IMG/VR virus record: IMGVR_UViG_3300020212_000062
Coordinates: 1 to 45,052 of that record
DNA: 45,052 nucleotides
Origin: a virus
Strand: one strand, 5' to 3'
In this document: positions 1-45,052 of the stretch, piece after piece
Position numbering within the stretch: position 1 is the first letter of the stretch
Layout of the letters: each line of letters begins with the position of its first letter
The notes under the pieces: model-generated
Told to the model about the DNA's origin: nothing
Databases searched by the model: none
The model's input: the letters and a program-made list of their open reading frames with translations, nothing else
Position numbers and translations under genes: made by a program

Positions 1-55
1 CCCTTCAGCGAGACGCCGGCGGGCCAAGCGCCGTTGACCTTGGGCCCGTACAGGA
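1..55. repeat. Terminal 55-bp direct repeat, copy 1 (overlap of a circular assembly)
   Basis: Bases 1-55 (cccttcagcgagacgccggcgggccaagcgccgttgaccttgggcccgtacagga) are identical to 44998-45052 when compared base by base. Confidence 0.9.
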
Positions 56-16329: not shown

Positions 16330-17604
16330 TCACACGTTCGGGGTGCCGTCCTGGGCGACCACTTCAAAGTCCGCGGCCACCTGCAGGGATGCCGCGGCAA
16401 ACGACAGCTCAACGCCATTGGCCTTGGCTTCGTTCACCTTGGCGGTGATCTTCTCGGCGTACTCGCGCTGGCTGATGGTGCCCTTGCCGCCGGTGTTGGC
16501 GTTGGAGCGTTCCTTGAAGTCCACGGCCTTGGGCAGCTTGCCCAGGAAAGCGTCCATGAAGGCATACGGCGACAGCTTCGGCGCCTGCTGGCCTTCGGCG
16601 GCCTCGCCGAACTCGACCACCTGGGCCGAATCGTCAAGGGTGGCCATGAAGGCGGCGACCTGCGGGCGCTGCGCCGGCAGCAGGCGGCCAGCGTCCACAT
16701 GCGGCTGCAGGGCAGCGTTGATGCGCGCCAGCTTGGCCTCGGATTCGGCCTTGCGGATGTTCTCCTCGCGCTCGCTGAACTCACGATTGCTCGCGGCCAG
16801 GCGCTCGTTTTCCTTCTTCATGGCTTCGATTTCGGCAGGGGTCATGGTGCTGTCTCCGGTGGTGTCGGTCGTGGTGACCTGGGGGCCGGTCTTGCCGGCG
16901 GGTTCGGTATAGGACGGGCTGCGGCTTTCCGCCTCAGCGCGCGCGCGCTCCTCCATTCGCACCGACTGGCGGGTGGGGTCTTCCACCTCCCATTCGGGCA
17001 GGATGCGGTCGGCCTCCTCCTGGCCCTTTTCCGCGATCAGGAAGTTTTTCACCGTGCGCAGGGTGCGGCCCACGCTGGCCAGCGCGCTGGCCATCGACCA
17101 GCGGTCATCCGCGGTCATGTCGGCGAACTCCAGCAGCAGCTCCGGGTGCGGATCCTCGGCGAAGTCCACGGGGCTGGCCTGCTCGTTGAACTGGATATCA
17201 CCCAGGCCCTTCAGCGCCGGCGGCACCGCGCCCAGGAATCCGATGTGCTTGGGGTACAGGTTGCCCGGGGATGGGTTGTTCGGGTGGTCGGGCATGTACC
17301 AGGACGCGCTGCGGTTGCGGAACGCCTTGTTTTCCACCAGCTCGGCGAACTGCGGTTCCACATGCTCCGGGTTCACCCACAGGTGACCGTCGCTGTAGGA
17401 CAGGCTGGCGGCCCAGCCATAGGCGCGATCCTCCTGCTTGGGGTGGCCGATCACCAGCGGGGTGGCGTACAGGCCGGGGTCGTACACCTTCACCGCATCC
17501 AGCAGCTGCTGCTCGGTGAACTCCACCACGGTGCCGCACGATGCGGTGTGCTTACCGGGGCGAAAAATCTTGAAAGACTTCATGGGCTTGCGATCGGTGG
17601 GCAT
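16330..17604 (-). CDS. Head maturation protease / scaffold fusion (Mu gpI or P2 gpO-like)
   Basis: FKIFRPGKHTASCGTVVEFTEQQLLDAVKVYDPGLYATPLVIGHP matches the N-terminus of the protease-scaffold family. The C-terminal half is coiled-coil (EIEAMKKENERLAASNREFSEREENIRKAE). The start could instead be the ATG at 17583. Confidence 0.7.
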   Translation of the reverse strand: MPTDRKPMKSFKIFRPGKHTASCGTVVEFTEQQLLDAVKVYDPGLYATPLVIGHPKQEDRAYGWAASLSYSDGHLWVNPEHVEPQFAELVENKAFRNRSASWYMPDHPNNPSPGNLYPKHIGFLGAVPPALKGLGDIQFNEQASPVDFAEDPHPELLLEFADMTADDRWSMASALASVGRTLRTVKNFLIAEKGQEEADRILPEWEVEDPTRQSVRMEERARAEAESRSPSYTEPAGKTGPQVTTTDTTGDSTMTPAEIEAMKKENERLAASNREFSEREENIRKAESEAKLARINAALQPHVDAGRLLPAQRPQVAAFMATLDDSAQVVEFGEAAEGQQAPKLSPYAFMDAFLGKLPKAVDFKERSNANTGGKGTISQREYAEKITAKVNEAKANGVELSFAAASLQVAADFEVVAQDGTPNV

Positions 17605-17732
17605 CTTGGTGGGCTCGCGCTCCTGGGGACGGTGCGAAATGTACGGGCCCAGGGCGAAGGGGGGTAGGTGCGGCCTCCCGCACCGATCGACGGGGCCGGC
17701 GATATCATCCCCACGGGACGCATCGATACTTG

Positions 17733-17761
17733 TTGCATCGCCTCGCTACTCTGTGTAGCAT
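17733..17761 (+). promoter_or_regulatory. Sigma70-like promoter for the plus-strand cassette (TTGCAT-17 nt-TAGCAT)
   Basis: TTGCAT at 17733-17738 and TAGCAT at 17756-17761, 45 nt upstream of the first cassette ATG. Its architecture is shared with 39064-39092. Confidence 0.4.
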
Positions 17762-17805
17762 TCAATTCACGGCCACGCCCGGCCGCATTCCCAGGAGCAA
17801 AACCC

Positions 17806-18060
17806 ATGTACGCATCCGTCCTCCGCACCGATTCCGCGCAGATTGCCCGCGATGGCCAGATTTTCCTGAACCGTGCGAACTACGGCAGCATGTCAGCTGA
17901 AGCTGTGCGCACCCATGTGCGCGATTGGGCTGTGTCTGAAGGCGTGATCGACCCGGAAGTGATCGTGCATGCCACCTCCGACGAACCGCTGTACCTGGGC
18001 AAGGTCGTGAGCGATCAGGGCGACGAACTGCACGCCTTTAACGTCGCGTTTGAGCTGTAA
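17806..18060 (+). CDS. Cassette gene 1, hypothetical 84-aa protein
   Basis: ATG at 17806 preceded by caggag. MYASVLRTDSAQIARDGQIF... Protein-like composition. Confidence 0.65.
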   Translation: MYASVLRTDSAQIARDGQIFLNRANYGSMSAEAVRTHVRDWAVSEGVIDPEVIVHATSDEPLYLGKVVSDQGDELHAFNVAFEL

Positions 18061-18089
18061 CCCTTACCCAATTCCCAGGAGCAATACCC

Positions 18090-18581
18090 ATGACCGCTTT
18101 CGCCTCGACCCTCGCCCCGCTGGCCGCCGACGTCCGCGAAGTCGCATTCGCTGACATGAACCAGGCGCAGGCCGGCGAGCTGGGCAACCACGCCCGCCGC
18201 CTGGCCAACGAAACCCTGCTTGGCATCATCCCGTTCCTGGGCAGCATGGGTGCCCGCGAACACGCCGGCATCATCGACCGCAGCGTGGCCTATGCCTACG
18301 GCGAGGCATATCTGCAGCATGTCCAGCGGAACACCGACTCGGTGCTGTGCGACGACAACAACTGGCTGCACAGCAGCGCCCTGTCGTCGGGTTACGTCGA
18401 CCTGCAGGTGGCGTATCACACCGCGTTCAAGTCCATGCAGGAAATGCTGGACGCGCACGCCGGCTACCGCCCGAGTCTGGACATGCGCGAGCCGGTGATG
18501 GTCCGCATTGCCGACGTCTACGACGCCCTGCAGGCCGAACGCGGCGATGCCCGCCGCGCCTACCGCTACGGGACGAACTGA
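18090..18581 (+). CDS. Cassette gene 2, hypothetical 163-aa protein
   Basis: ATG at 18090 is preceded by the same 19-nt leader as gene 1. I checked the codons and third positions are almost all G/C. Confidence 0.7.
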   Translation: MTAFASTLAPLAADVREVAFADMNQAQAGELGNHARRLANETLLGIIPFLGSMGAREHAGIIDRSVAYAYGEAYLQHVQRNTDSVLCDDNNWLHSSALSSGYVDLQVAYHTAFKSMQEMLDAHAGYRPSLDMREPVMVRIADVYDALQAERGDARRAYRYGTN

Positions 18582-18694
18582 TGAACCGCCGCCACGTCGA
18601 GGCGCGCACCCGCGCGCCGCTGGTGGCCCTGCTGGCCGTGGTCGACCTGGTGTCGATCGCGGCCGCCTGCAGGGCCGTGCTGGGGCTGCTGTGA
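18581..18694 (+). CDS. Cassette gene 3, 37-aa hydrophobic micro-protein
   Basis: TGATG overlap with gene 2. MNRRHVEARTRAPLVALLAVVDLVSIAAACRAVLGLL has one predicted transmembrane helix. Its stop overlaps the next ATG. Confidence 0.4.
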   Translation: MNRRHVEARTRAPLVALLAVVDLVSIAAACRAVLGLL

Positions 18695-18951
18695 TGGCCC
18701 GGCCCGCCAGCATGCAGGGCGGCCAGGTGACGCTTACCCTGACCGGATCCCAGGACAAGCTGCTGCGGCGCGCGCTGGAAGGCGGCCGCGACTGCTGGGC
18801 CGCCCTGGCCATCCAGGCCAAGGCCACCGCCGAGCGCCGCGACAAGCGCATTCCAGGCACCGAGCGCGAACGCAACATGGCCCGATCCGCCGAGTACCAA
18901 CGCCGCGCCGAACAGGTGCAGGCACTCATCGACCAACTGCCCCAGGAGTGA
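18694..18951 (+). CDS. Cassette gene 4, hypothetical 85-aa protein
   Basis: TGATG overlap. MARPASMQGGQVTLTLTGSQDKLLRRALEGG... Confidence 0.55.
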   Translation: MARPASMQGGQVTLTLTGSQDKLLRRALEGGRDCWAALAIQAKATAERRDKRIPGTERERNMARSAEYQRRAEQVQALIDQLPQE

Positions 18952-18956
18952 ATCCC

Positions 18957-19136
18957 ATGCACCCGCAAGCTGTCCGCCGCCCGCCCTCTTTCTTCGCCAA
19001 GCGCGCCAGGCTGCGCGCCATCGTCCGCTGGTACCGCGGCCTGGATCTGCAGACGCAAGCCGATGCCGCGTTCGGCGCCGCCGTGATCGTTGGTTTCTTC
19101 CTGGTGGGCATTGGCCTGCAGGTGGTGGGCAAGTGA
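18957..19136 (+). CDS. Cassette gene 5, 59-aa protein with a C-terminal transmembrane helix
   Basis: caggag lies 8 nt before the ATG at 18957. ...FGAAVIVGFFLVGIGLQVVGK. Confidence 0.5.
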   Translation: MHPQAVRRPPSFFAKRARLRAIVRWYRGLDLQTQADAAFGAAVIVGFFLVGIGLQVVGK

Positions 19137-19609
19137 GCGCGCCGCATCCGACCGACACCATAGGCTGGCGCTGCCGCGGCTGCGGCTGCACCGACACCCA
19201 GGCGTGCCCAGGCGGTTGCCATTGGGTCGACGTGGAGCTGTGCAGCGCCTGCGTCCAGGATCCGCCGGTACCGGCACCGCTTCCCCTGCTGCGCATCGGC
19301 ATCGAGGATTGGCAGGCGCTGCCCGATGCGGTGCTGCCGCGGTGCGCCACTGGCGGCGGCGTCACCCACGACGTTTACAGCGCCACCATGTACCTGTCGC
19401 GCGAGCGCTTCAGGCCGGAAAGCGCGCAGCCCCTGCCGGCGTTCGTGGCGGTACCGCAGGATCTGATGGCCGAGCTGCAGCGCGCGCTGCATGACGCCCA
19501 GGTGCAGCTGTCCAGGGCCGGGCGTGGCCTTCGACTCAACCCCCTGAAGGCCGGCAAGGCATGCGGCGCCCTGGCCGTGGTGGCTGAAAAGCTCGGGGGT
19601 GGCGAGTGA
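19133..19609 (+). CDS. Cassette gene 6, 158-aa protein with an N-terminal Cys-rich (metal-binding-like) module
   Basis: GTG start at 19133. WRCRGCGCTDTQACPGGCHWVDVELCSAC has 7 Cys and 1 His within 29 residues. Confidence 0.6.
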   Translation: MSAPHPTDTIGWRCRGCGCTDTQACPGGCHWVDVELCSACVQDPPVPAPLPLLRIGIEDWQALPDAVLPRCATGGGVTHDVYSATMYLSRERFRPESAQPLPAFVAVPQDLMAELQRALHDAQVQLSRAGRGLRLNPLKAGKACGALAVVAEKLGGGE

Positions 19610-19770
19610 GCCGGCGCAACCGCAGCGAGGCATGGGCCAACCAACAGCTGGCCCAGCGTCCGGTACCGGTGGCGCCTCGGATCATGTCGAGAAAACCGCC
19701 CACCGTCTGGCAGCGCCTGCGCGCGCTGGCCAAGCGCCTGGGCCTGGGGGTGCACCGTGGCGACGTTTGA
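19606..19770 (+). CDS. Cassette gene 7, 54-aa Arg-rich micro-protein (not in the ORF track because it is under 60 aa)
   Basis: GTGA overlap with gene 6. My translation is MSRRNRSEAWANQQLAQRPVPVAPRIMSRKPPTVWQRLRALAKRLGLGVHRGDV. Confidence 0.35.
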   Translation: MSRRNRSEAWANQQLAQRPVPVAPRIMSRKPPTVWQRLRALAKRLGLGVHRGDV

Positions 19771-20179
19771 CCCCAAAACCTTCCTGCAGGACATGGCCAG
19801 GCCGCGATCGCTGGCCGAGCTGGTGGCCGCCGGTGACCTGGTCGACTGCACGCTGATGGCCAACTGGCACGGCTTCCAGTTTCCGTGTTTCCTCACGATC
19901 GGCGCCTGGGAAGCGGTCATCGGCCCGCGGGGCAAGGTCAGCGCCATGCTGCCGCCGGCGGAAATGCGGCGCCAGGGCGAACGCCAGCACTCGCTCTGGC
20001 GCATTGCCGCGCAGCAGATGAACCGCTACGCCGCCACCGCCAAGGGCAAGCGCGTGCCCGATGCTGTGCCGCTGCATGTGCCCGGGGTGAACTCGGCCGA
20101 CCTGCAGCGCCTGGAAATCCGCGTGGCCACCGACAGCGCCGGCCAGCTCTATGTAACCGTCCGCCTCACTGGAGAATGA
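19757..20179 (+). CDS. Cassette gene 8, 140-aa protein resembling a small family common on ICEs/conjugative plasmids (possibly DUF6573)
   Basis: LVAAGDLVDCTLMANWHGFQFPCFLTIGAWEAVI...SLWRI...ATDSAGQLYVTVRLTGE fits my recalled pattern G.LVDVT..A...GF..PVA.T..VW..V...LWD.L...GPGD.GEPV.TI.LP.ED. Confidence 0.55.
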   Translation: MATFDPKTFLQDMARPRSLAELVAAGDLVDCTLMANWHGFQFPCFLTIGAWEAVIGPRGKVSAMLPPAEMRRQGERQHSLWRIAAQQMNRYAATAKGKRVPDAVPLHVPGVNSADLQRLEIRVATDSAGQLYVTVRLTGE

Positions 20180-20182
20180 CCA

Positions 20183-20545
20183 ATGGCAGAACACCATATG
20201 ACCCCGGAACAGCAAGCGCGCTGGCACGCCGTTGGCCAGCAGCTGAAGCGATTGGGACCGCCGGAGCCGCCGGCGCCGTTGCCGTTCCTGCAGTGCCGGT
20301 GCGTGATCCGGCCGCAGACGGAGCTGGCCATGCGCCGCCGCCTGTTCCAAACGCGCATGGCCGCAATCCGGTACCGAGTGGAAGACATGGGCCGCCAGGC
20401 CGCCGACCAGGTCATGGCCCAGCGCATCGAGCGCCACGCCCGCACCGATCGATACCTGCGCAACGCCGGCCTGGCGCTGGGCGTGCTGGCGCTCCTGGCT
20501 GGCCTGGCTGCGATCGCCGCCGGCACGATCGGGGGTGCTGCATGA
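20183..20545 (+). CDS. Cassette gene 9, 120-aa protein with a C-terminal transmembrane helix
   Basis: ggag upstream of the ATG at 20183. ...LALGVLALLAGLAAIAAGTIGGAA. Confidence 0.6.
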   Translation: MAEHHMTPEQQARWHAVGQQLKRLGPPEPPAPLPFLQCRCVIRPQTELAMRRRLFQTRMAAIRYRVEDMGRQAADQVMAQRIERHARTDRYLRNAGLALGVLALLAGLAAIAAGTIGGAA

Positions 20546-20844
20546 AGGCGCTGCCGACCACGAACCGCCCGTGCAAGGGCCGCGGCGTAGCCTGGTCGCG
20601 CACGGTCACGCCGGACGTCATCACCGTGCGCGCGTTCAAGCGCGACAGCACCGGGCGAAGCCACATGCACGCCCGTGAACTGCCAGTGCGCGAGCTGGCC
20701 AGGCATCGGCACCCGCGCACGGTGCTGGCCCTGCAGCTGCTCGCCTGCAGGGCGCAGGTGCGGTGGGCGGTCGACCAGGTCGATTTCCAGCTGCTCGGCC
20801 TGGTCGACACCACGCCGCGGCCGCGTGCCGGGGTGGTGCTGTGA
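20542..20844 (+). CDS. Cassette gene 10, hypothetical 100-aa protein
   Basis: ATGA overlap with gene 9. I checked the codons and GC3 is high. Confidence 0.5.
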   Translation: MKALPTTNRPCKGRGVAWSRTVTPDVITVRAFKRDSTGRSHMHARELPVRELARHRHPRTVLALQLLACRAQVRWAVDQVDFQLLGLVDTTPRPRAGVVL

Positions 20845-21326
20845 ACCGCCGGATGCGCCGCGAGCGCGAACGGGCGAAGTTTGAGGCGGCCAGGCAGCGC
20901 GCGCTGCTGCGCATGGTGGCGAAGTGGAACACGCTCAACACCGAATGGCGCGTGCGCGGGATGGACGACGAAATGGCACAGGTGAAAACCGCCCTGAACA
21001 ACCTGGCCAGCGCGTACCGCGGCACTGCCCGCGTGCTGCTGATTGGCCCCGGCGGTGTCACCACGAACCTGGGCCCCGCCGGCGTGGCGTTCGCCGCTGG
21101 GCTGCGGTACCAGGCACAGCAGCAGGCCGACCAGGTGCGCGAGCGGGCATTCATCGACACCGGCATGGCCACTGGTAGTTCGCCGGCGGATCTGTGGCCA
21201 TGCGGCGACTGCATGGTGGAAACGCGGCAGCAGCCCATCCTGGGTGGCCGAGCCTGGCGAACGATCGAGCGCACCCGCACCTGCGACATGTGCCGCGCCC
21301 AGGGCGCGCCGGAGTACTTGCCATGA
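20841..21326 (+). CDS. Cassette gene 11, 161-aa protein with a C-terminal CxxC...CxxC zinc-ribbon-like motif
   Basis: GTGA overlap. ...WPCGDCMVETRQQPILGGRAWRTIERTRTCDMCRAQG. Confidence 0.55.
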   Translation: MNRRMRRERERAKFEAARQRALLRMVAKWNTLNTEWRVRGMDDEMAQVKTALNNLASAYRGTARVLLIGPGGVTTNLGPAGVAFAAGLRYQAQQQADQVRERAFIDTGMATGSSPADLWPCGDCMVETRQQPILGGRAWRTIERTRTCDMCRAQGAPEYLP

Positions 21327-21721
21327 CCCTGGACCAGCTCGACCTGTTCACCGAGCGCGAACACCGCGCCCTGGGTGCGCCGCCGGTACCGAACCGGTAC
21401 GGCGTGTTTGAGCCCGACGAAACCCTGACCCTGGACAGCCCTGGCCGCTTCGCCATGCCCGTGGCCGAAATCGACCTGGTACATGTGCCGGCGTTCGGTT
21501 GGATCTTCGCCACGTCGTACCACCTGGGCGACTGCGGCGCGTCGTCGCCGCTGGTGCTGGACAGGGCCGACCGCGGGGACAGCAGGCGCGATGCCCTGGT
21601 GCGTGCCGTCGACCAGCTGTGCGGCCGCATGGACGGCTACCTGCAGTGCAGCAACGACAGCGCCACGCGCAAGGGCACCGCCCGCAAGGTCAAGGCCTGG
21701 GCCAAGGGGCTGCTGGCCTAA
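21323..21721 (+). CDS. Cassette gene 12, hypothetical 132-aa protein
   Basis: ATGA overlap. MTLDQLDLFTEREHRALGAPPVPNRYGVFEPDE... Confidence 0.6.
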   Translation: MTLDQLDLFTEREHRALGAPPVPNRYGVFEPDETLTLDSPGRFAMPVAEIDLVHVPAFGWIFATSYHLGDCGASSPLVLDRADRGDSRRDALVRAVDQLCGRMDGYLQCSNDSATRKGTARKVKAWAKGLLA

Positions 21722-21761
21722 AACCTGCAGCTGCTGCACCACCTGGTCCACTCAACGCGCA

Positions 21762-21787
21762 AGCCCCGGATTCCCGGGGCTTTTTTC
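21762..21787 (+). terminator. Rho-independent terminator closing the plus-strand cassette
   Basis: AGCCCCGG-attc-CCGGGGCT followed by TTTTTT. It sits between the convergent stops at 21721 and 21812 and is nested inside a 10-bp inverted repeat (21743-21752 / 21797-21806). Confidence 0.85.
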
Positions 21788-21811
21788 GTGGGCGAAAGTG
21801 GACCAGTGCGG

Positions 21812-24848: not shown

Positions 24849-26396
24849 CTAGAATCCTTCGGTTCCTGCGGGTCCGCGGCGAACTGTACGCGATCGCGGT
24901 TTGGGGGTTCGGGTGCGGCTGGCCGCATCCCTGGTTTCGCGCTTCTCGCTCAGGGCGCCCGGCGCGGCGGTGCCCTCGCTGGTCAGGCCCATGCGGGTGC
25001 CGGCGCTGGCCACCTGCGGGATGTGGGTAAGCGGGAAGGTCCGCAGCCACATGAGGAACTGGCTCACGCTGTCCACCTGGTCGTCGTGCACGCCCTTGGT
25101 GGGGAAGCTGGTCAGCTCGTTTTCAAAGTCCAGCAGCCAGGTGGCGCGGGTCGGGAGCCACATGCGGCCGGCTTCCATCAACAGGGTGGCGCTGACAGCG
25201 CGCGTCACCTTGTTGCCGTCCGGTTCCACGGGTTTCACGGGCAGCTTTGTGCTGGCGCGTAGATCCTGGATCAGGGACGTGCCGCTGGCCTTGTCCTCGA
25301 TCAGCACCACGTCGGCGCCCCACTTGTCGTACAGGTCCGTGGCGGCTTTCTTCAGCTCGGGGTACGTCATGCGCTCGCGCACGACGTCGACCAGGTAGGC
25401 GTTGCCCGTCTCATGGACGGCCCACACCGTGCCCACGCTGTAGTCGTTTACCTCGTTATCTTTCTGCGCCGTGTCCCAGCTGTGCACCCAAGCCACGATC
25501 TTGCCCGGCGGCAGCGCCAGGCGGCGCTCCAGGGGCGTGGCGTCGGGCTCATCGATGGCGTACCGCTTCCACCATTTCGACTTGATGACGCCGCCCTCCT
25601 GGGTGGCGTACCAATCGCCGTTCAACCACGCGGCCACCAGCCAGGACGGGCCCGAGCCGCGTAGGCGGCGCATGTACCCCGGATCGTTGGCCAGCAGCGC
25701 CTGGTTGTCGGTCAGCCGGCTGGGGATGTAGACGCGCACGCGGCCCGTTTCGGGGTCGCGCCACGGGACCATAGGCTGGCGGTTGCGTATGTACCGATCA
25801 ACGATCCAGGGCTGGCCAGGACCGCCCGGGTTGGCCGTCATAATCTCCCGGATGGGCACGCCGTTGCGATCGCGCAGGGTGGCAGACAGCTTGTCCAGCG
25901 GCCGCACGTCGGGGAAGTTGCCGCCCTCATCCTTGCCCAGCCAGTTGTAGCTGTGGCCCTGGTACCGGCTCGCGTCTTCGTCGCGCTTCAGGTAGCGCAT
26001 TTTCAGGAAGCCGCCCCACGGGAAACGCCAGGTGTAGCGGCCCGCCTGCCACTTCGCGCCCAAGGGCAGGAACAGCTCCTGGCTGCGCGCCACCACTTCG
26101 TCCAGCTCATCGTAGGTACGGCGGATCAGCATCCCGCGGAAGTGCGGCGCGTAGGCCTGGCTGTAAATGCCGGCATCGCCCAGGAGCGCGTCTGTCTTGC
26201 CGCCGCCGCGCGCGCCGCCGAACAGGATATCGTCGGCCGGACACGCGATCAGGAGCGTCTGCGGGCCAGCCTGCGGACGCCACACCAGGTTTACGGGGAA
26301 GCCGCCGGCCTGCAGCTCGGCGGCGGTGCCGGTTAGCCCGCCTTTCCGGCGCGCGCTTGCTGTTCGTGCCATACCTTCTCTGCCTGCTCCTGCCAT
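24849..26396 (-). CDS. terL: Terminase large subunit
   Basis: Walker A GGARGGGKT and Walker B-like NWLGKDEGG. ~510 aa. The start is ambiguous between the ATGs at 26396 and 26372; both overlap the end of terS. Confidence 0.85.
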   Translation of the reverse strand: MAGAGREGMARTASARRKGGLTGTAAELQAGGFPVNLVWRPQAGPQTLLIACPADDILFGGARGGGKTDALLGDAGIYSQAYAPHFRGMLIRRTYDELDEVVARSQELFLPLGAKWQAGRYTWRFPWGGFLKMRYLKRDEDASRYQGHSYNWLGKDEGGNFPDVRPLDKLSATLRDRNGVPIREIMTANPGGPGQPWIVDRYIRNRQPMVPWRDPETGRVRVYIPSRLTDNQALLANDPGYMRRLRGSGPSWLVAAWLNGDWYATQEGGVIKSKWWKRYAIDEPDATPLERRLALPPGKIVAWVHSWDTAQKDNEVNDYSVGTVWAVHETGNAYLVDVVRERMTYPELKKAATDLYDKWGADVVLIEDKASGTSLIQDLRASTKLPVKPVEPDGNKVTRAVSATLLMEAGRMWLPTRATWLLDFENELTSFPTKGVHDDQVDSVSQFLMWLRTFPLTHIPQVASAGTRMGLTSEGTAAPGALSEKRETRDAASRTRTPKPRSRTVRRGPAGTEGF

Positions 26397-28318: not shown

Positions 28319-29068
28319 TCAGACGGGTGGCAATCGCTCGCAGGCCTTGCCGGTCATGGCCTCCCACACCGTCACCATTGAGTCGCACAGGTGCGCGTCG
28401 TCGGTGATGATGAACAGCGGGCCGGCGGATTTCGTCCTGGCCAGGGCGGTGATGATGGCCGATGCAATGTCCAGAACGGGTGCCCCGGGTTGTCCTGCAG
28501 TTACCGCCAGGCGGTGCGCGTCGTCGTCAATGTCGCCACACAGCAGCCGGTGCTGGCCCAGGGCGATGATTTCGCCCCACACCGTGGTGGGCTCCTCGGG
28601 CTTGCTCTTGCCGCCACCGTCGCCACCGTCGCCGGTACCGAGCTGGGGCTGCAGCTCCTGCAGGAACTCCAGCAGCGGCTCGTTGGTCGCTTCGACCTGG
28701 GCCAGCAGCTCGTTGAGCAAGTCGGCGTCGGTACCGGCCATTGCAGCGATCGGGTCGAGGGTGGCCAGCGCAATGCGCTCCTCGTTCTCGGTCAGCTCGA
28801 CGTACACCACGGGGATGGTGGGCTCGTTGCGCCGCAGGGCGCGGCTGACCCGCAGGTGGCCATCAACGACGTGGCCGGTAGTGCGGTTGACGATCACGCG
28901 CTGGATCCAGCCGATTTCGTCCAGGGCGCCGTCGATCGCGCGGCCCTGCTCGGTGCTGTGCACTCGGAAGTTGTAGGGGTTGGCCAACAGGTCGGCCGGG
29001 GAGATTTCCCCCTCCCCAACGATCCGCGATCGCCAGGTGTCAGGGGTGGGCTTCTTCTTACGGGGCAT
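28319..29068 (-). CDS. ParB-like nuclease domain protein fused to a degenerate (internally deleted) DNA methyltransferase remnant
   Basis: The N-terminal half, NPYNFRVHSTEQGRAIDGALDEIGWIQRVIVNRTTGHVVDGHLRV, is ParBc-like. The C-terminal half keeps GQHRLLCGD and ...VLD...DDAHLCDSMVTVWEAMTGKA, which are flanks of ParB-methylase fusions. It has no DPPY motif and no FGGSGT-type SAM loop. Confidence 0.6.
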   Translation of the reverse strand: MPRKKKPTPDTWRSRIVGEGEISPADLLANPYNFRVHSTEQGRAIDGALDEIGWIQRVIVNRTTGHVVDGHLRVSRALRRNEPTIPVVYVELTENEERIALATLDPIAAMAGTDADLLNELLAQVEATNEPLLEFLQELQPQLGTGDGGDGGGKSKPEEPTTVWGEIIALGQHRLLCGDIDDDAHRLAVTAGQPGAPVLDIASAIITALARTKSAGPLFIITDDAHLCDSMVTVWEAMTGKACERLPPV

Positions 29069-29260: not shown

Positions 29261-29293
29261 GAAGGCCCCGACCAGGGGGTGGTCGGGGCCTTC
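29261..29293 (-). terminator. 13-bp-stem hairpin followed on the minus strand by TTCTTTCC (terminator-like)
   Basis: gaaggccccgacc-aggggg t-ggtcggggccttc, with a perfect stem. Confidence 0.45.
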
Positions 29294-29370: not shown

Positions 29371-29409
29371 TCCTAAAACGAAAAACCCCCGGGGTGCAAT
29401 CCCCGGGGG
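29371..29409 (-). terminator. Rho-independent terminator downstream of the lysis cassette
   Basis: Minus strand: CCCCCGGGG-attgca-CCCCGGGGG followed by TTTTTCGTTTT. Confidence 0.75.
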
Positions 29410-29672
29410 TAGTCGGCCTGTGCCTTGGGCCGCAGGGTGGCACCCCTTTGGCTTGGTCCCGGTCGCCCCCGGGTCCGCGGCTCCTATCGCTCACTGGAGA
29501 GTGAGTGGAACCTGGCTGTCAGCTTCCCATGTACCGCCAGCCAGTTGTTGCTCGAAAGGTTCGCGCGCCACTTGATGCCGCCGAGTGTCCCGGTTTGTCC
29601 CTGTCCGCAATGCTGAGTTGCGGGGCGGCGGTGACCCGTTTTTTTCTGCCCGGGTGAACCTTGGGCCGAATC

Positions 29673-31772: not shown

Positions 31773-32150
31773 TCAGGTGCGGGAACCCGCACGCTGCAGG
31801 CGCAGCTCGCGGTGCCCCATCGCGTCCAGGATTGTCTGGATCTGCCGGCGGCTCACGCCGTACAGGCACGACAGGGACAGAATGCTGCTCCCCGCCGTGA
31901 AGTCGCTCACGATCGCCGCATTGCGCAGGTCGATCAGGAAATTACGCTCGGCCGGCAGGTCGAGCTCGGTGCTGCCGTAGCGCCTGGCCAGCTTCTGCGC
32001 CGACTCCAGCCCAACGACAAAGGCCAGGGGGTGGTCCTGGCCCAGGGATTCGGGAACCTTGATGCGTCGACCACCCCAGGCGCGCAGCAGCTCGATGGCG
32101 TGGTGGTGGCCGATCAGCTGCACCAGGTCATCCAGAATCGCGCTTGCCAT
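31773..32150 (-). CDS. mor: Mor/C-family transcriptional activator (late gene activator)
   Basis: ...LLRAWGGRRIKVPES... and ...RNAAIVSDFTAGSSILSLSCLYGVSRRQIQTIL fit the Mor family pattern (GGxxIYIP ... RNxxIxxDFxxGxSxxxLAxxYGxSxRxIYxI). Confidence 0.65.
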   Translation of the reverse strand: MASAILDDLVQLIGHHHAIELLRAWGGRRIKVPESLGQDHPLAFVVGLESAQKLARRYGSTELDLPAERNFLIDLRNAAIVSDFTAGSSILSLSCLYGVSRRQIQTILDAMGHRELRLQRAGSRT

Positions 32151-39139: not shown

Positions 39140-40042
39140 ATGAACGATGAAACCCCGCAGCAGCTGCCGCCGATCAGGTGCAGCACCACGTTTGCCCAGG
39201 TGGCCACCGCCCTGGCCAAAGCCCAGGGCGCATTCCCGCCGATCCCCCGCGATCGCACGGTAACCGTCGATATCAAAGACAGGGAAACCCGCCGGATCGT
39301 CGGTAACTACAGCTACAAATACGCCCCGCTGGAAACGATCATCGAGAAAACCCGGCCGGCGCTGTCGGAGGCGCAGCTGGCCACGCTGCAAAGCCCCGAG
39401 CTGGTGCCGGTCGACGGCAAGATGGTGGAAGTGGTCCGCACGGTCCTGGTGCACTCCAGCGGCGAATGGATGGCGGTGGATATCCCGTTGTTCTTCAGCC
39501 GCGGCCAGAATGCCGCGCAGGACTACGGCAGCTCGCTGACCTACGCCCGCCGCTACGGCATGACCCTGATTCTGTGCGTGGCTGCAGACGACGACGACGA
39601 CGCCAAGCACCTGGAAGGATCGGAGCGCCCGGGGCATACCGGCAGCGGCCGCGGTAGCTCGGATGTGGCAATGCCGGCGCGCCGCAGCCAGCAGCCTGGG
39701 CATGACGAACTCGACCAGGCCATGCGCGAGCTGCAGACACAGCTGGACCAGCGCCGCGCACCGATCACCAGCGCCGCACCGGAAGACGCCGAGCCCAGCG
39801 CGCTGCCGCCGCGCCAGGACGCCCCGGCGGATCCGGCGGTGGACGTGGCCACCGGTGAGTGCACCAGCCCGTGGGGCTCGGATCTGACAGACGGCCAGCT
39901 GTCGATGGCCAAGCAACGCGCCAAGGTTGCCGGCATGTCGGACCCGGCGGTGTTTGAGGCGTTCGGCATCATCACCCAGGCCAATATCCGCGAGTCGCTG
40001 GCGGGCCTGAAGCAACGCGCCGACGCGGCGCTGGGCGTCTGA
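39140..40042 (+). CDS. erf: ERF-family single-strand annealing recombinase
   Basis: ...YSYKYAPLETIIEKTRPALSEAQL... and ...AQDYGSSLTYARRYGMTLILCV... are ERF signatures. ATG at 39140. Confidence 0.8.
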   Translation: MNDETPQQLPPIRCSTTFAQVATALAKAQGAFPPIPRDRTVTVDIKDRETRRIVGNYSYKYAPLETIIEKTRPALSEAQLATLQSPELVPVDGKMVEVVRTVLVHSSGEWMAVDIPLFFSRGQNAAQDYGSSLTYARRYGMTLILCVAADDDDDAKHLEGSERPGHTGSGRGSSDVAMPARRSQQPGHDELDQAMRELQTQLDQRRAPITSAAPEDAEPSALPPRQDAPADPAVDVATGECTSPWGSDLTDGQLSMAKQRAKVAGMSDPAVFEAFGIITQANIRESLAGLKQRADAALGV

Positions 40043-40044
40043 CC

Positions 40045-40674
40045 ATGCGCGGCTTGACCTTCGATGAAGCCCGGCATGAGTACCGCCTGGACGGCGTCAA
40101 GCTGCCAGGCGTCACCACGGTGCTGAAGCCGATCAGCTCGGCCCACTACGCCGGCGTGGATCCCGACGTGATGGCGCGCGCCGCAGCGCTTGGCCAGGCC
40201 GTGCACAAGGTGATCGAGCTGGACCTGCAGCAGGATCTGGACACGGACAGCCTCGACCCCGAGCTGGTGCCCTACTACCGCGGCTGGCGCATGTTCCTGC
40301 GCCAGTCCGGTTTCCAGGCGTACCTGTCGGAAAAGAAGCTGGCCAGCGTCCAGGGCCGCTACGCCGGCACGCTCGACCTCATGGGCGTGCTGAACGGCCT
40401 GCCGTCGCTCATCGATGCCAAGCGCGTGGCCGTGGTGACTCCCAGCACCGGCCCGCAGACGTTCGCCTATGGCCAGCTGGTCCGGGAAAACTGCCCCGAG
40501 CTGCTGGGCCCCACCACCCCGCTGCGGCGCTACGCCCTGCAGCTGAAGAAAGCTGTTCCCAACGCCGTTACTGCCGACTGGCAGCTGCTCCCCTTCACCA
40601 ACGATTCGCGCGACCGCCTTGTGTGGCAGTCGTGCCTCAACATTGCCCATTACCTCCAGGAATCCAAAGCATGA
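40045..40674 (+). CDS. PD-(D/E)XK family exonuclease
   Basis: HEYRLDGVKLPGVTTVLKP... and GTLDLMG...SLIDAKR (D...D-x-K). Confidence 0.65.
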   Translation: MRGLTFDEARHEYRLDGVKLPGVTTVLKPISSAHYAGVDPDVMARAAALGQAVHKVIELDLQQDLDTDSLDPELVPYYRGWRMFLRQSGFQAYLSEKKLASVQGRYAGTLDLMGVLNGLPSLIDAKRVAVVTPSTGPQTFAYGQLVRENCPELLGPTTPLRRYALQLKKAVPNAVTADWQLLPFTNDSRDRLVWQSCLNIAHYLQESKA

Positions 40675-41603
40675 ACGCACCCACCGCAACCCCTATCGCC
40701 CAAGCCGTTGCCGAGCTGGTCAAGCCGCAGGAAGTGATCGCCGCCGAGCGCCAGGCCCAGGCCGCGATCGACGGCGCACGCCTGCTGGTGATCGACTCCC
40801 GCGAAGGCTACGAGGCGGCCGCCGATGACCTGCAGTCGCTGAAGGATCGTTTTCGTGCCGTCGAGGCGCAGCGCGTCCACCTGAAGGAGCCATTCCTGGA
40901 AGGCGGCCGCCGCGTTGACGCCTTTTTCAAGGTGCCCCTTGACCGCCTGAAGGAGGCGGCCGATATCGTCTCCCGCGGCATGCTCGACTATGACCGCCGC
41001 GAACAGGAACGCCTGCGGAAGGAGCGCGAGGAAGCCGACCGGAAGGAGCGCGAGCGCCTGGCGGAAGTGAAGCGCCAGCAGGAGGAGGCGGACAAGGCCG
41101 CGCGCCAGGCCGCTGAAGCCCAGGCCGCTGCGGACAAGGCCGCGCGGCAGGCCGCTGAAGCCGCCCAGGCCGCCACCGATGCCGCTGCCCAGGAAGCGGC
41201 ACAGGCAGCTGCCGCTGCCGCTGAAGCTGCAGCCGCTGAAGCTGCAGCCGCGACCCAGGCCGCCCAGGCCCAGGCGGTGCAGGTCCAGGAAACGGTCGAC
41301 CTGCTGGCCGTGACGCCGGCCGCACCGGTGGCCACGTCGCAGGCGCGCGCTGCAGGCACGTCCACCGTGCGCACCTGGAAGGCCGTAAGCATCGACCTGC
41401 GCGAGCTGGTGTTGGGTGCGGCCAAGGCCATCCAGGAAGGCAGCGAGCGCGCGGACGAACTGCTGTCCTACCTGCAGGCCAACGAAAGCGCGCTGAACGC
41501 CACCGCCAAGGGCCTGAAGGGCGCAGCGCGCGTGCCTGGCGTCCTGTTCGGAGAGTCGGCGAGCATCCGCGCCTCCAGCCGCGGCAAGGGCCGCGCGGGC
41601 TGA
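40671..41603 (+). CDS. Hypothetical coiled-coil protein with an Ala/Gln/Glu-rich repeat core (DUF1351-like by position)
   Basis: ATGA overlap start at 40671. Contains 42-nt and 15-nt tandem repeats at about 41088-41249. Confidence 0.55.
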   Translation: MNAPTATPIAQAVAELVKPQEVIAAERQAQAAIDGARLLVIDSREGYEAAADDLQSLKDRFRAVEAQRVHLKEPFLEGGRRVDAFFKVPLDRLKEAADIVSRGMLDYDRREQERLRKEREEADRKERERLAEVKRQQEEADKAARQAAEAQAAADKAARQAAEAAQAATDAAAQEAAQAAAAAAEAAAAEAAAATQAAQAQAVQVQETVDLLAVTPAAPVATSQARAAGTSTVRTWKAVSIDLRELVLGAAKAIQEGSERADELLSYLQANESALNATAKGLKGAARVPGVLFGESASIRASSRGKGRAG

Positions 41604-41657
41604 CAATGACGGGGCGCCGGCAGCGGCGCCCCTACAACCTGGACGGAGAAAATCAAC

Positions 41658-42164
41658 ATGGCACGCGGCATCAACAAGGTGATCCTGGTGGGGAACCTGG
41701 GGAATGACCCCGATGTGAAGTACACCCAGGGCGGGATGTGCATCACCCGCATTTCGCTGGCCACCACCAGCGTGCGCAAGGCGCGCGACGGGGAAATGCA
41801 GGAGCGCACCGAGTGGCACCGGGTGGTGTTCTTCGGGAAGCTGGGCGAAATCGCCGGCGAGTACCTGCGCAAGGGCAGCTCGGTGTACGTCGAGGGGGCC
41901 CTGCGCTACGACAAGTACACCGGCCAGGACGGGGTGGAGAAGTACACCACCGACATTGTGGCCGACGAAATGCAGATGCTCGGCGGCCGCGTGAGCGGTG
42001 AAGGGAGCCAGGACCGGCCCCAGCGACAGCGCCAGCCTGCGCAGGCGCCCCGCCAGGAGTACGGGCAGGGCGGTGGTGGCGGGTACAGCCAGGCGGCCGG
42101 CACAGGCTCATACAGTGCGCCGCCGCCTATGGATGACTTCGCCGACGACGACATTCCGTTTTAG
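41658..42164 (+). CDS. ssb: Single-stranded DNA-binding protein
   Basis: MARGINKVILVGNLGNDPDVKYTQGG...TEWHRVVFFGKLGEIAGEYLRKGSSVYVEG... with a Gly/Gln-rich tail ending in DDDIPF. Confidence 0.95.
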   Translation: MARGINKVILVGNLGNDPDVKYTQGGMCITRISLATTSVRKARDGEMQERTEWHRVVFFGKLGEIAGEYLRKGSSVYVEGALRYDKYTGQDGVEKYTTDIVADEMQMLGGRVSGEGSQDRPQRQRQPAQAPRQEYGQGGGGGYSQAAGTGSYSAPPPMDDFADDDIPF

Positions 42165-42172
42165 GGGGCACC

Positions 42173-42487
42173 GTGGCCACAACCTTCACCCGCGGCCAGC
42201 TGGTCCGCTGGCACACCCAGGGCAACGGCAGTCGCGTGAACCACGTTGGGGTCGTGGTGCTGCAGGTGCCCGCCGGCGTGCCGCTGGGGCCGCTCATGGA
42301 CAGCCTGCAGAAACGCTACAACACCCGGGCCATCGTCGGCCGCGGGCCCAGGTCGGAAACGTCCTACCTGGTCGCCCGCACCGGCGGCCGCGGCCTGGCC
42401 AAACTCCACTGGCCGCACGCCGCGGCCATCCGCCCTTATGAGGATCCGTGCAATGCGACAGACGAAACGCCGCCCCTTGTGGGCTGA
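42173..42487 (+). CDS. Hypothetical protein (104 aa)
   Basis: GTG start 9 nt after the ssb stop. Protein-like composition. Confidence 0.5.
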   Translation: MATTFTRGQLVRWHTQGNGSRVNHVGVVVLQVPAGVPLGPLMDSLQKRYNTRAIVGRGPRSETSYLVARTGGRGLAKLHWPHAAAIRPYEDPCNATDETPPLVG

Positions 42488-42536
42488 TGTGGTCACCCTG
42501 GTGCTGGTCGGCCTGGCCATCATGGTGAAGTGGTGA
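42453..42536 (+). CDS. 27-aa hydrophobic micro-protein
   Basis: gagga lies about 8 nt before the ATG at 42453. MRQTKRRPLWADVVTLVLVGLAIMVKW. Confidence 0.35.
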   Translation: MRQTKRRPLWADVVTLVLVGLAIMVKW

Positions 42537-42841
42537 GCGCCTACGGCCCCGGGATGCCGCCGCGGAATCCGGCCGCGGAAGCCAGGCGAGTGCAGCAGGA
42601 GCTGCAACGCCACCAGCGCCGGCTGCTGATGCGGCAGCAGGTCGAGGCATCGGCCGTTGGCCTGCTGGAGCTGGCCAGGATCGTGGGCGCGGTGCTGCTG
42701 GTGCTGGATCTGCACGGGCTCACGCCGGTGCCGATGCTGGCCAGCCTGGTGCTGGCCTTTGCCCCCAACCTGGCCAGCTTGGCCAGCCTGGCCTGGGTGC
42801 TGTACCGAGCCCGGCGCGCTCGCCGCCTCGGCGATCGGTAA
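42530..42841 (+). CDS. Membrane protein (103 aa)
   Basis: Hydrophobic segments VGLLELARIVGAVLLVLDL and MLASLVLAFAPNLASLASLAWVLY. The start could instead be the ATG at 42554. Confidence 0.5.
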   Translation: MVSAYGPGMPPRNPAAEARRVQQELQRHQRRLLMRQQVEASAVGLLELARIVGAVLLVLDLHGLTPVPMLASLVLAFAPNLASLASLAWVLYRARRARRLGDR

Positions 42842-44490: not shown

Positions 44491-45052
44491 GTTCCAGGGA
44501 TACCTCGCGTCAGCGCGATCAGGTCATAGCGCGAATCGGTGCCATCGTATCGGAAGCCCAGCAGGTCGGAGACGTTGGCGCCCAGGCTAGGGTTGTACGA
44601 CGGGATATTCAGATTGAACCGCATCACCAGCACCGGCAGGGCGATGGTATGGCCGCCGGCACTGTCCTGGCGGATCTTCAGCATGCAGCCCTGCCCATTG
44701 CGCGCCCCGGTGAAAGTGAAAGTGGTGTCGGTGGTGACGGTCACCCGGATTTCGTCGTATGCGTCCCAATCGCAGGCCACCGTGCCGGTGCCGCTGTTGG
44801 CGATCACCTGCACACGGCGATCGGCGGAGATACCCGCCGGGCCCTGCTCGCCTCGGTCGCCTTTCTCGCCCTTCAGGCTGGCCAACCACTGCGCCTGGGT
44901 ACCCGCAAAGCCGTTGGCCACCGCGACCTGGTAGGCCGACAGGCCCTGCGGCCCTTGCGGGCCAGTTGAACCGGTCGGCCCACGATCGCCCTGCGGACCC
45001 TTCAGCGAGACGCCGGCGGGCCAAGCGCCGTTGACCTTGGGCCCGTACAGGA
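44487..45052 (-). CDS. Tail fibre protein, C-terminal part (continuation of 317..1 across the circular junction)
   Basis: The frame of ORF 44487..44921 stays open upstream to the window edge. Collagen-like G-X-Y runs: GPQGDRGPTGSTGPQGPQG and KGEKGDRGEQGPAG. Joined to 1..317 the gene is 828 nt (275 aa). Confidence 0.75.
   Translation of the reverse strand, partial: LYGPKVNGAWPAGVSLKGPQGDRGPTGSTGPQGPQGLSAYQVAVANGFAGTQAQWLASLKGEKGDRGEQGPAGISADRRVQVIANSGTGTVACDWDAYDEIRVTVTTDTTFTFTGARNGQGCMLKIRQDSAGGHTIALPVLVMRFNLNIPSYNPSLGANVSDLLGFRYDGTDSRYDLIALTRGIPGT
44998..45052. repeat. Terminal 55-bp direct repeat, copy 2
   Basis: Identical to bases 1-55. Confidence 0.9.

Follow-up and report, generated by a model that had tools for sequence, protein, structure and literature searches.

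An antisense cassette of twelve small genes within the head-gene region of a phage genome of the StM171/Suso group

Why should a dozen small genes be read against the direction of the head genes that surround them? The question is raised by a stretch of viral DNA of 45,052 nucleotides (nt), positions 1 to 45,052 of the IMG/VR record IMGVR_UViG_3300020212_000062, which as a whole is called the window in the following. In it 12 plus-strand genes, here called the cassette and numbered g1 to g12, occupy positions 17806-21721 between a MuF-like gene and the protease/scaffold gene. The initial annotation took them for a candidate accessory or anti-defence island. Our best reading is that the cassette is a separately transcribed, non-structural operon inherited by the whole phage lineage. 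Most probably it serves host takeover, counter-defence and/or the exclusion of competing phages, through small effectors encoded on an autonomous transcript, a reading to which we assign a probability of about 0.55.

A lineage-conserved operon with flexible edges

Gene calls were based on a frame analysis of GC content at third codon positions (GC3) combined with inspection of starts and stops, and gave 12 genes of 37-163 amino acids (aa). In the GC3 frame plot plus-strand coding runs unbroken from about 17800 to 21720 and the minus-strand signal resumes on both sides. The GenBank annotations of the related phages Suso, StM171 and QH16 independently call almost the same genes. Suso is collinear with the window over its full length, and this collinearity places everything from the packaging genes through the tail fibre on the minus strand except the cassette; the one other plus-strand block in the genome is an SSB/RecA-like operon at about 39140-42841. 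The first description of this locus, 12 plus-strand open reading frames (ORFs) amid minus-strand head genes, is thus borne out, and so is the proposed chaining of these ORFs by overlapping stops and starts, with TGATG at g2/g3 and g3/g4, GTGA at g5/g6 and g6/g7, and ATGA at g9/g10 and g11/g12. Genes g7 and g8 overlap by 14 nt and the remaining junctions are gaps of 3-8 nt, the exception being g1/g2, the sole long gap (29 nt), with its own ribosome-binding site. The 37-aa g3 is unannotated in the Suso record, where the ORF is present (L001 6453-6566) with 92% identity. On one side the cassette is flanked by the protease/scaffold gene at 16330-17604 (phrog_976, 1e-91) and on the other by the MuF-like gene, which begins at 21812 (PF04233, 7e-23) and is followed by a Mu-type portal gene (PF06074, 7e-102).

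The first 55 nt of the window (1-55) are identical to the last 55 (44998-45052), therefore it is a complete, circularly assembled phage genome of about 44,997 bp, with a GC content of about 68%. It belongs to the StM171/Suso/HXX_Dennis group of Stenotrophomonas/Xanthomonas phages, for which a genus 'Nordvirus' was proposed (PMC10747581). Cassette nucleotide identity is 91-97% to StM171, Suso and HXX_Dennis and 82% to QH16. In the published records of these four phages the cassette genes are annotated as 'hypothetical', and searches of the StM171 paper returned no passage on the block (PMC10747581).

Relatives were found via the protease gene or via g6/g8, and all cassette proteins of 11 variants were clustered. 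The relatives are Suso, StM171, QH16, the IMG/VR contigs L011, L012 and L014, and L019, L023 and L024 from other public assemblies; L013 is a fragment only, and L022 is truncated, with the cassette and its 3' side visible and the protease side unseen. Slot and strand of the cassette are identical in every relative found, down to identities of 48% for the protease and 61-71% for portal and capsid. For L012 the identity to the window amounts to 33-69% in the cassette proteins and 57-71% in the structural proteins. Presence of the genes differs (Table 1), from g4 and g8 in all 11 variants, through g10 and g11, which cluster as one family found in 10/11, to g2 and g3 in four. Gene order, on the other hand, is identical throughout the 11 variants, the kept core being g4-g5-(g6)-g7-g8-(g9)-g10/g11. 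Because this core order is maintained despite structural proteins of only 48-70% identity, we conclude that the cassette is a lineage-conserved operon with flexible edges and no free cargo hot spot.

The ratio of nonsynonymous to synonymous substitution rates (dN/dS) was computed against StM171 and contig L011, comparisons with farther relatives being near saturation and less reliable. Eight of the 12 genes (g1, g2, g5-g8, g10 and g12) are under purifying selection as strong as that on structural genes, for which values of 0.05-0.25 were obtained (portal, capsid, MuF and protease). The faster genes are g4, g9 and g11.

Variability is located at the edges. Two of the six genome segments in which window and Suso are non-homologous fall in the cassette (g2 and the g11 region), amounting to 24% of its length in comparison with about 3.5% elsewhere, and g11 has been replaced between the two phages (34% identity). 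Extra small ORFs follow g11 in Suso, StM171, QH16 and L011, and 27 gene families are found in three variants or fewer. The first cassette gene is g1 or g2 in relatives, and the window has both in tandem. Since each of the two lies behind a 22-nt ribosome-binding-site block and the two blocks are 21/22 identical, their exchange looks like recombination at this block. Two unrelated DNA methyltransferases are found at the 3' end in more distant relatives, one of the Dam class in L023 (PF02086, 1.8e-19) and one of the N6/N4 class in L024 (PF01555, 1.4e-46), the latter contig also having an HNH gene there (phrog_1571). The variable slot first suspected at this locus was thus found in the synteny comparison at the edges, which exchange genes, and not in the core, whose order is kept with g4 and g8 in 11/11.

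The slot itself is a familiar one in a comparison of this genome with other phages. With the proteases of B3, the JBD phages and BcepMu it shares 33-35% identity in its own protease, and its head module is homologous to the Mu-like one. In true Mu-like phages the genes follow one another as portal, F, G and protease, few or none being placed between them, and in Mu-like Pseudomonas phages an anti-CRISPR (acr) operon occupies the interval from the G homologue to the protease/scaffold gene (PMC3993853), so that the slot just upstream of the latter is the acr position (PMC3993853; PMC4378225). The proposed match of the two positions therefore holds, the cassette being directly upstream of a homologous protease.

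This equivalence is one reason to think of a dedicated anti-defence island, that is, of interchangeable immunity inhibitors (against restriction-modification, CRISPR, CBASS and others) collected at an acr-equivalent hot spot. It would be in accordance with a conserved promoter-like element of the cassette's own, as in acr operons, with small proteins without known relatives, with a share of replaced DNA among close relatives that is about 7-fold that elsewhere in the genome, with the fast evolution of g4, g9 and g11 and with the methyltransferases in the same operon of L023 and L024. We nevertheless consider such an island unlikely, given a core order that 11 variants share even where protease identity drops to 48%, no mix-and-match pattern, and strong purifying selection on 8/12 genes. 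GC content is low only in the first ~500 bp (g1 and the spacer upstream, 0.63) and elsewhere equals or exceeds the genome average, unlike the low GC content of the acr region RGP G (PMC4378225). The cassette is also antisense and without an aca-like helix-turn-helix (HTH) gene, whereas acr operons end in an HTH gene (PMC3993853), and no match to Acr or other anti-defence families was found in sequence searches of PHROGs, Pfam and PDB. An anti-defence role is possible for the edges and unproven for the core, whose conservation suggests a function that the lineage retains. A recent horizontal origin of the whole block was also considered and rejected, on the grounds of a GC content that is not reduced and of a core inherited within the lineage.

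Transcription signals and phage lifestyle

The promoter-like element assigned to the cassette as sigma70-like is present; its consensus match is poor, with 7/12 sigma-70 positions. A sigma-70 scan at 9/12 or better gave no site in the cassette region and one in the other 41 kb of the genome, a threshold that discriminates poorly at 68% GC since it leaves a single site in 45 kb. The spacer between protease and cassette was aligned from 8 variants and checked in 10. TTGCAT is invariant and is followed in 10/10, always after 17 nt, by a yAnnAT hexamer, while the flanks diverge; the pattern has one match in the window versus 0.01 expected. We take this conservation as better evidence for a promoter than the match to the consensus. 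Downstream of it, in the presumed 5' leader, a conserved palindrome has both arms shortened together in StM171 and L011. Its fold is thermodynamically ordinary (z = -0.6), and nothing in cassette or leader was matched by Rfam. At the other end, the strong intrinsic terminator originally described is confirmed: its stem-loop at 21761-21782 is followed by a T-run on the plus strand, and the minus strand has none. Elsewhere on the minus strand two strong intrinsic terminators lie close together at 29261-29293 (14-bp stem) and 29385-29410 (10-bp stem), about 200-350 bp upstream of a methylase gene (~28319-29068) and downstream of the lysis genes.

Between the protease start and the promoter-like element a dyad is retained in 10/10 variants in DNA that has otherwise diverged. 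GC-rich dyads of the form GTGCGG-N2-6-CCGCAC are found in the window at 17665-17684, at 31776-31793 (the 3' end of a mor-like gene, upstream of the endolysin) and at 24912-24929 (near the terminase/portal junction), a count that is not significant (3 matches versus 1.6 expected). These dyads may be late-activator binding sites, and the one in the spacer could be a candidate late (Mor-type) promoter/operator for the protease-to-tail operon. The late promoters of Mu are Plys, PI, PP and Pmom, and because P_I lies upstream of gene I, the junction upstream of the protease is an operon boundary at which an insertion spares the transcript. The protease start codon itself is uncertain: QH16 and L012 begin at a Met equivalent to window position 17583 (MK[PS]F..IFRPGKH), the start annotated in StM171 corresponds to 17604, and that annotated in Suso, at about 17658, would overlap the conserved dyad.

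A unit with promoter and terminator within a late region has the classic layout of morons, and the cassette might accordingly consist of prophage-expressed conversion or exclusion genes, transcribed in a lysogen or carrier state and shielding the host against other phages. In favour are three small membrane peptides whose form recalls exclusion proteins and a repressor-like gene annotated in Suso. We regard this as very improbable, because the close relatives among the representative genomes of 185,579 species are only two phage-sized contigs in bins of metagenome-assembled genomes (MAGs), with no integrated copy among all these genomes; a prophage origin was rejected on these grounds. Relatives of g6 and g8 were likewise never on a chromosome-sized contig, the longest contigs being 20-59 kb, and no integrase or transposase is reported for the proposed 'Nordvirus' (PMC10747581). 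Two contigs deposited with MAGs, L026 (SSEB01000020.1) and L027 (JAHXDM010000022.1), are near-identical copies of the phage with a protease 100% identical, and their MAG labels are Nevskiaceae and 'Rickettsia endosymbiont of Bradysia coprophila'. Both copies are probably binning contaminants, and the 59-kb contig may be a concatemer.

Table 1. Positions in the window of the cassette genes and of the sequence elements in and around them; variants are those carrying the feature, out of the number compared.
Feature	Position	Strand	Description	Variants	dN/dS
Dyad	17665..17684	.	AGGTGCGG-N4-CCGCAC, between protease start and promoter-like element; flanking, outside cassette	10/10	
Promoter-like element	17733..17761	+	TTGCAT-N17-TAGCAT	10/10	
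Palindrome	17770..17785	+	CGGCC-ACGCCC-GGCCG, presumed 5' leader	9/10	
Ribosome-binding-site block, copy 1	17787..17808	+	ATTCCCAGGAGCAAAACCCATG, before g1; 21/22 identical to copy 2		
g1	17806..18060	+	84 aa, acidic (pI 4.6), soluble	5/11	0.12
Ribosome-binding-site block, copy 2	18071..18092	+	before g2; 21/22 identical to copy 1		
g2	18090..18581	+	163 aa, insertion/deletion gene	4/11	0.05
g3	18581..18694	+	37 aa, single membrane-type segment (Kyte-Doolittle 2.31)	4/11	
g4	18694..18951	+	85 aa, basic, universal core	11/11	0.8-1.05
g5	18957..19136	+	59 aa, basic N-terminus, C-terminal hydrophobic segment (Kyte-Doolittle 2.34)	8/11	0.07-0.31
g6	19133..19609	+	158 aa, N-terminal 7-Cys module, C-terminal helical hairpin	8/11	0.16-0.21
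g7	19606..19770	+	54 aa, very basic (pI 12, net charge +10)	7/11 by BLAST	0.14-0.27
g8	19757..20179	+	140 aa, universal core; putative distant DUF6573 relative	11/11	0.05
g9	20183..20545	+	120 aa, basic, C-terminal hydrophobic anchor	7/11	~0.6
g10	20542..20844	+	100 aa, very basic (net charge +11)	10/11 (with g11)	0.23-0.32
g11	20853..21326	+	157 aa, basic N-terminus, C-terminal CxxC...CxxC; most variable gene	10/11 (with g10)	0.34-0.61
g12	21323..21721	+	132 aa, last gene	7/11	0.14-0.18
Terminator	21761..21790	+	intrinsic; 9-bp stem with 7 G-C pairs, 4-nt loop, then TTTTTCG		

Beyond the terminator, the MuF gene differs in size between relatives. It encodes about 506 aa in the window and about 1,090 aa in the distant relatives L014 (1726-5010) and L024 (8362-11637), and the L024 protein carries the ADP-ribosyltransferase toxin domains PF01129 and PF03496.

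The encoded proteins and their links to other gene pools

Scans of all 12 proteins against Pfam and PHROGs gave no usable match, nor was any match found for the ten larger proteins in NCBIfam and PADLOC or for g2, g6, g8, g11 and g12 in PDB sequence searches. No methyltransferase domain is present in the window's cassette. The label '5-formyltetrahydrofolate cyclo-ligase' that g12 bears in GenBank (StM171 and QH16) found no support in Pfam, NCBIfam or PDB and was rejected. In particular, PHROGs and Pfam matched none of the 12 proteins to a structural family, while the flanking genes match at 1e-88 to 1e-102, and the earlier remark that none of them resembles a virion protein is well founded. 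That the cassette encodes virion or assembly components, such as head chaperones or internal proteins made from the opposite strand, is suggested by its position within the head-morphogenesis region; it is hardly credible for genes that are antisense, have a promoter-like element and a terminator of their own and include peptides of 37-59 aa with membrane segments, the more so as homologous Mu-type head modules do without them.

Of the 'three or four' tiny membrane peptides expected, we find three proteins with a strong hydrophobic segment (Kyte-Doolittle, 19-residue window), namely g3, g5 and g9, the segment of g9 covering residues 95-113 (2.35). Short membrane-type peptides are also found at the g3 position in L004, L012 and L014, and L014 possesses a positional analogue of g7 with the same ...LGVHRG C-terminus. 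The two cysteine features pointed out at the outset are real, a 7-Cys module at the N-terminus of g6, with 7 invariant cysteines, and a CxxC...CxxC ribbon at the C-terminus of g11 (CGDC...CDMC).

The basic g7 and g10 and the cysteine-cluster proteins g6 and g11 could bind nucleic acid, which brings in another explanation, an essential or near-essential developmental module composed of regulators of the early-to-late switch, helpers of replication or DNA modification, or lysis-timing factors. Universal core genes in conserved order, dN/dS values as low as those of capsid genes and a non-canonical promoter that could be activator-dependent would all suit such a module, as would the fusion elsewhere of the g6-type 7-Cys module to ParB_N+HTH_ParB, winged-helix and HTH domains. 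It is rather improbable in our judgement. No DNA-binding, replication or regulatory domain was detected in the 12 proteins (for HTH and other DNA-binding families at E up to 0.1, a very divergent HTH being possible), and recognisable replication, recombination, regulatory and lysis genes are found elsewhere in the genome. Moreover, L014 is without g6, g9, g10 and g12, QH16 without g1 and Suso without g2, which indicates that many cassette members are dispensable.

The universal gene g8 has 16 relatives in a library of 1.84 billion representatives and 21 in a collection of 5.8 billion proteins, and those on long contigs are on contigs of phage size (~44 kb). Eight of 15 members of the g8 family match the same part of the DUF6573 profile (PF20213) weakly, with a best E of 2.4e-5; the scores of the relatives among those listed (three) are 16.8-19.0 bits, below the gathering threshold of 27 bits, and the window's own g8 gives no match at E up to 0.1. 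A g8 profile search of the 5.8-billion-protein collection did not reach annotated DUF6573 members, and a literature search found no paper mentioning this family. We read g8 as a distant relative of DUF6573, not a member by the Pfam criterion. This is probably the family meant when one cassette protein was initially likened to a family of integrative conjugative elements and plasmids, a likeness that holds weakly for g8 relatives and not for the window's g8 itself. The AlphaFold model of g8 is confident, with a predicted local distance difference test score (pLDDT) of 92.6 and a predicted template-modelling score (pTM) of 0.82. A fold search with this model, in which E below 0.01 or a template-modelling score (TM) above 0.3 served as yardstick, reached neither value and found no neighbour in PDB (best E 0.017, TM 0.23) or in BFVD (best E 0.11).

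The cysteines of g6 (C14, C17, C19, C25, C29, C37 and C40) are all invariant among its relatives; a collection of 5.8 billion proteins contains nine of these relatives, and eight lie on contigs of 12-59 kb. The AlphaFold2 model of g6 is poor (pLDDT 59.8) except for residues 109-154. The module, CRxCGCTDxxACPGGCxWVExDLCSxC, is 27-28 residues long and occupies residues 14-40 of g6 (window 19172-19252). On its own the module is widespread: at least 189 stretches in IMG/VR hold near letter-for-letter copies (listed loci L046-L122), the phages concerned having 32-72% GC. We inspected 79 ORFs with the module: it is mostly C-terminal, in otherwise unrelated proteins of 50-736 aa, and the 7 cysteines, one glycine and one tryptophan are invariant across 71 module proteins. 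Its partners include ParB_N+HTH_ParB (four cases), Trans_reg_C (two), HTH_3, DUF5131, DUF3102 and others, as well as ASCH in one metagenomic protein, and most partners are without a Pfam domain. The module also ends an ORF on Enterococcus plasmids, to which a tblastn search with the 12 cassette proteins concatenated as query had led, and in hmmscan it matches no Pfam family of its own.

Gene g2, absent from Suso, StM171 and Dennis and present in QH16, L011 and L019, is composed of parts with different relatives. The N-terminal part has a counterpart in Sanovirus Bhz60, in the gene that opens a run of 11 co-directional small hypothetical genes; from the layout of this run we would guess it to be an early operon. 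Its C-terminal domain of about 60 aa (window 18387-18578; ..YRPSLD..P..IAD.YD..QA.RGD.RRAYRYG) is found with differing N-termini in eight IMG/VR contigs of unrelated phages of 40-67% GC, and also in an unannotated 190-aa ORF of Xanthomonas phage Rb1, the loci listed being L009 3644-4216 and L037-L043. It is a mobile domain. In L037 it occurs, together with a relative of a cassette family of L014 and L024, within a run of small ORFs that immediately precedes a borderline Mor-like gene (PF08765, 24.1 bits versus a cut-off of 24.9), for which HTH_23 scores about equally; the ORFs that follow we read as putative lysis genes. The semi-essential early region of Mu has the same position as this run of small ORFs. 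These are hints, no proof of timing, that the cassette genes may belong to an early accessory gene pool.

Proposed role and comparison with known systems

We infer the timing, the targets and the biological role of the cassette along the following lines. Host RNA polymerase would start at the TTGCAT-N17-TAnnAT element and produce one polycistronic mRNA of 12 cistrons, mostly translationally coupled, which would stop at the terminator hairpin and so spare the converging packaging/MuF operon, while the protease-to-tail operon would restart from a promoter of its own in the same 200-bp spacer. The cassette would be expressed before or apart from the late genes, and its products would be small effectors acting against the host, not parts of the virion: membrane-anchored (g3, g5, g9), with cysteine clusters (g6, g11), very basic (g7, g10) and several small soluble ones including the universal g8. 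The core g4-g10 would be inherited vertically, with the first gene, the g10-g12 stretch and the 3' end as exchange points, and the accessory genes taken up there in relatives would include DNA methyltransferases.

Several observations weigh against host takeover, counter-defence or exclusion as the function. A conserved core in the same order fits an essential developmental module equally well. The promoter is non-canonical, and an activator-dependent middle or late promoter, like that of Mu mom, is possible. The high dN/dS of g4, g9 and g11 could reflect relaxed constraint or recombination and not an arms race. None of the 12 proteins has an activity supported by homology, and the methyltransferases are confined to two distant relatives and absent from the window.

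Going further, the cassette could be an old, vertically inherited host-takeover or counter-defence operon of undescribed families seated at the head-module boundary that acr operons use, a proposal that we hold tentatively and with some doubt. If it is true, anti-host genes would in general be able to settle at this boundary in Mu-type head modules, and several new inhibitors would be contained in the cassette. Phage accessory operons are the source of most known inhibitors of bacterial immunity and host machinery. The cassette is compact, cleanly bounded and comparable over 11 variants, which makes it a tractable set of candidates, and phages of this group are considered for therapy against Stenotrophomonas maltophilia. 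If it is an ordinary early operon, the gain would be a better annotation of published genomes and removal of the wrong g12 label. Two by-products may be of wider use, the 7-Cys module with its ParB-like and HTH partners and the confident g8 model, for which PDB and BFVD gave no fold match. Antisense clusters of orphan genes are unsurprising in phages; what makes this one a reasonable lead for experiments is the equivalence of the slot together with the depth of its conservation and these two by-products.

Compared with known systems, the cassette resembles morons in being a unit with its own promoter-like element and terminator between late genes and in the presence or absence among relatives of g2 and of the small ORFs after g11. 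Morons, a concept from lambdoid phages (Hendrix/Juhala), usually comprise one or two genes in only some relatives, whereas the cassette is an operon of 10-14 genes in every relative found. With the semi-essential early region of Mu and with host-takeover operons (lambda pL, SPO1) it has in common a dozen packed, small, mostly lineage-specific genes, and the g2 domain and another cassette family upstream of the borderline Mor-like gene of L037 recall the former. It differs from them in lying inside the head region, away from replication and regulatory genes, and Pfam scans of the cassette revealed no homology to Mu kil, gam or gemA. As regards DUF6573, the likeness is the shared part of the profile in 8/15 family members, and the differences are the unmatched g8 of the window and the sub-cut-off scores among those listed. 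From the cassettes of StM171, Suso, HXX_Dennis and QH16 that of the window is set apart by its g1 and g2 in tandem and its own g11 allele.

The closest comparison is with the acr-aca operons of JBD30, D3112 and MP29 (RGP G). The cassette is antisense to the head genes, in whose direction acr operons run, and with 12 genes in 3.9 kb it is four or more times larger. Its left neighbour is the F (MuF) homologue and not G, since the G homologue here lies downstream of the capsid gene. At E up to 0.1 no HTH gene resembling aca was detected in it, low GC content is confined to its first ~500 bp, and its core is conserved in order across a deep lineage. The acr operons are described as a unique operon inserted between head genes, opening with a conserved promoter and closing with an HTH gene (PMC3993853), and the number of accessory ORFs per variable region ranges from zero to six (PMC4378225). 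Both are inserted immediately before the protease/scaffold gene of homologous Mu-type head modules, and both have a conserved 5' promoter-like element of their own (in the cassette TTGCAT-N17-yAnnAT, 10/10, judged by conservation), small proteins without wider homologues and some gene swapping between close relatives. The boundary upstream of the protease/scaffold gene thus holds non-structural genes in two distant phage groups.

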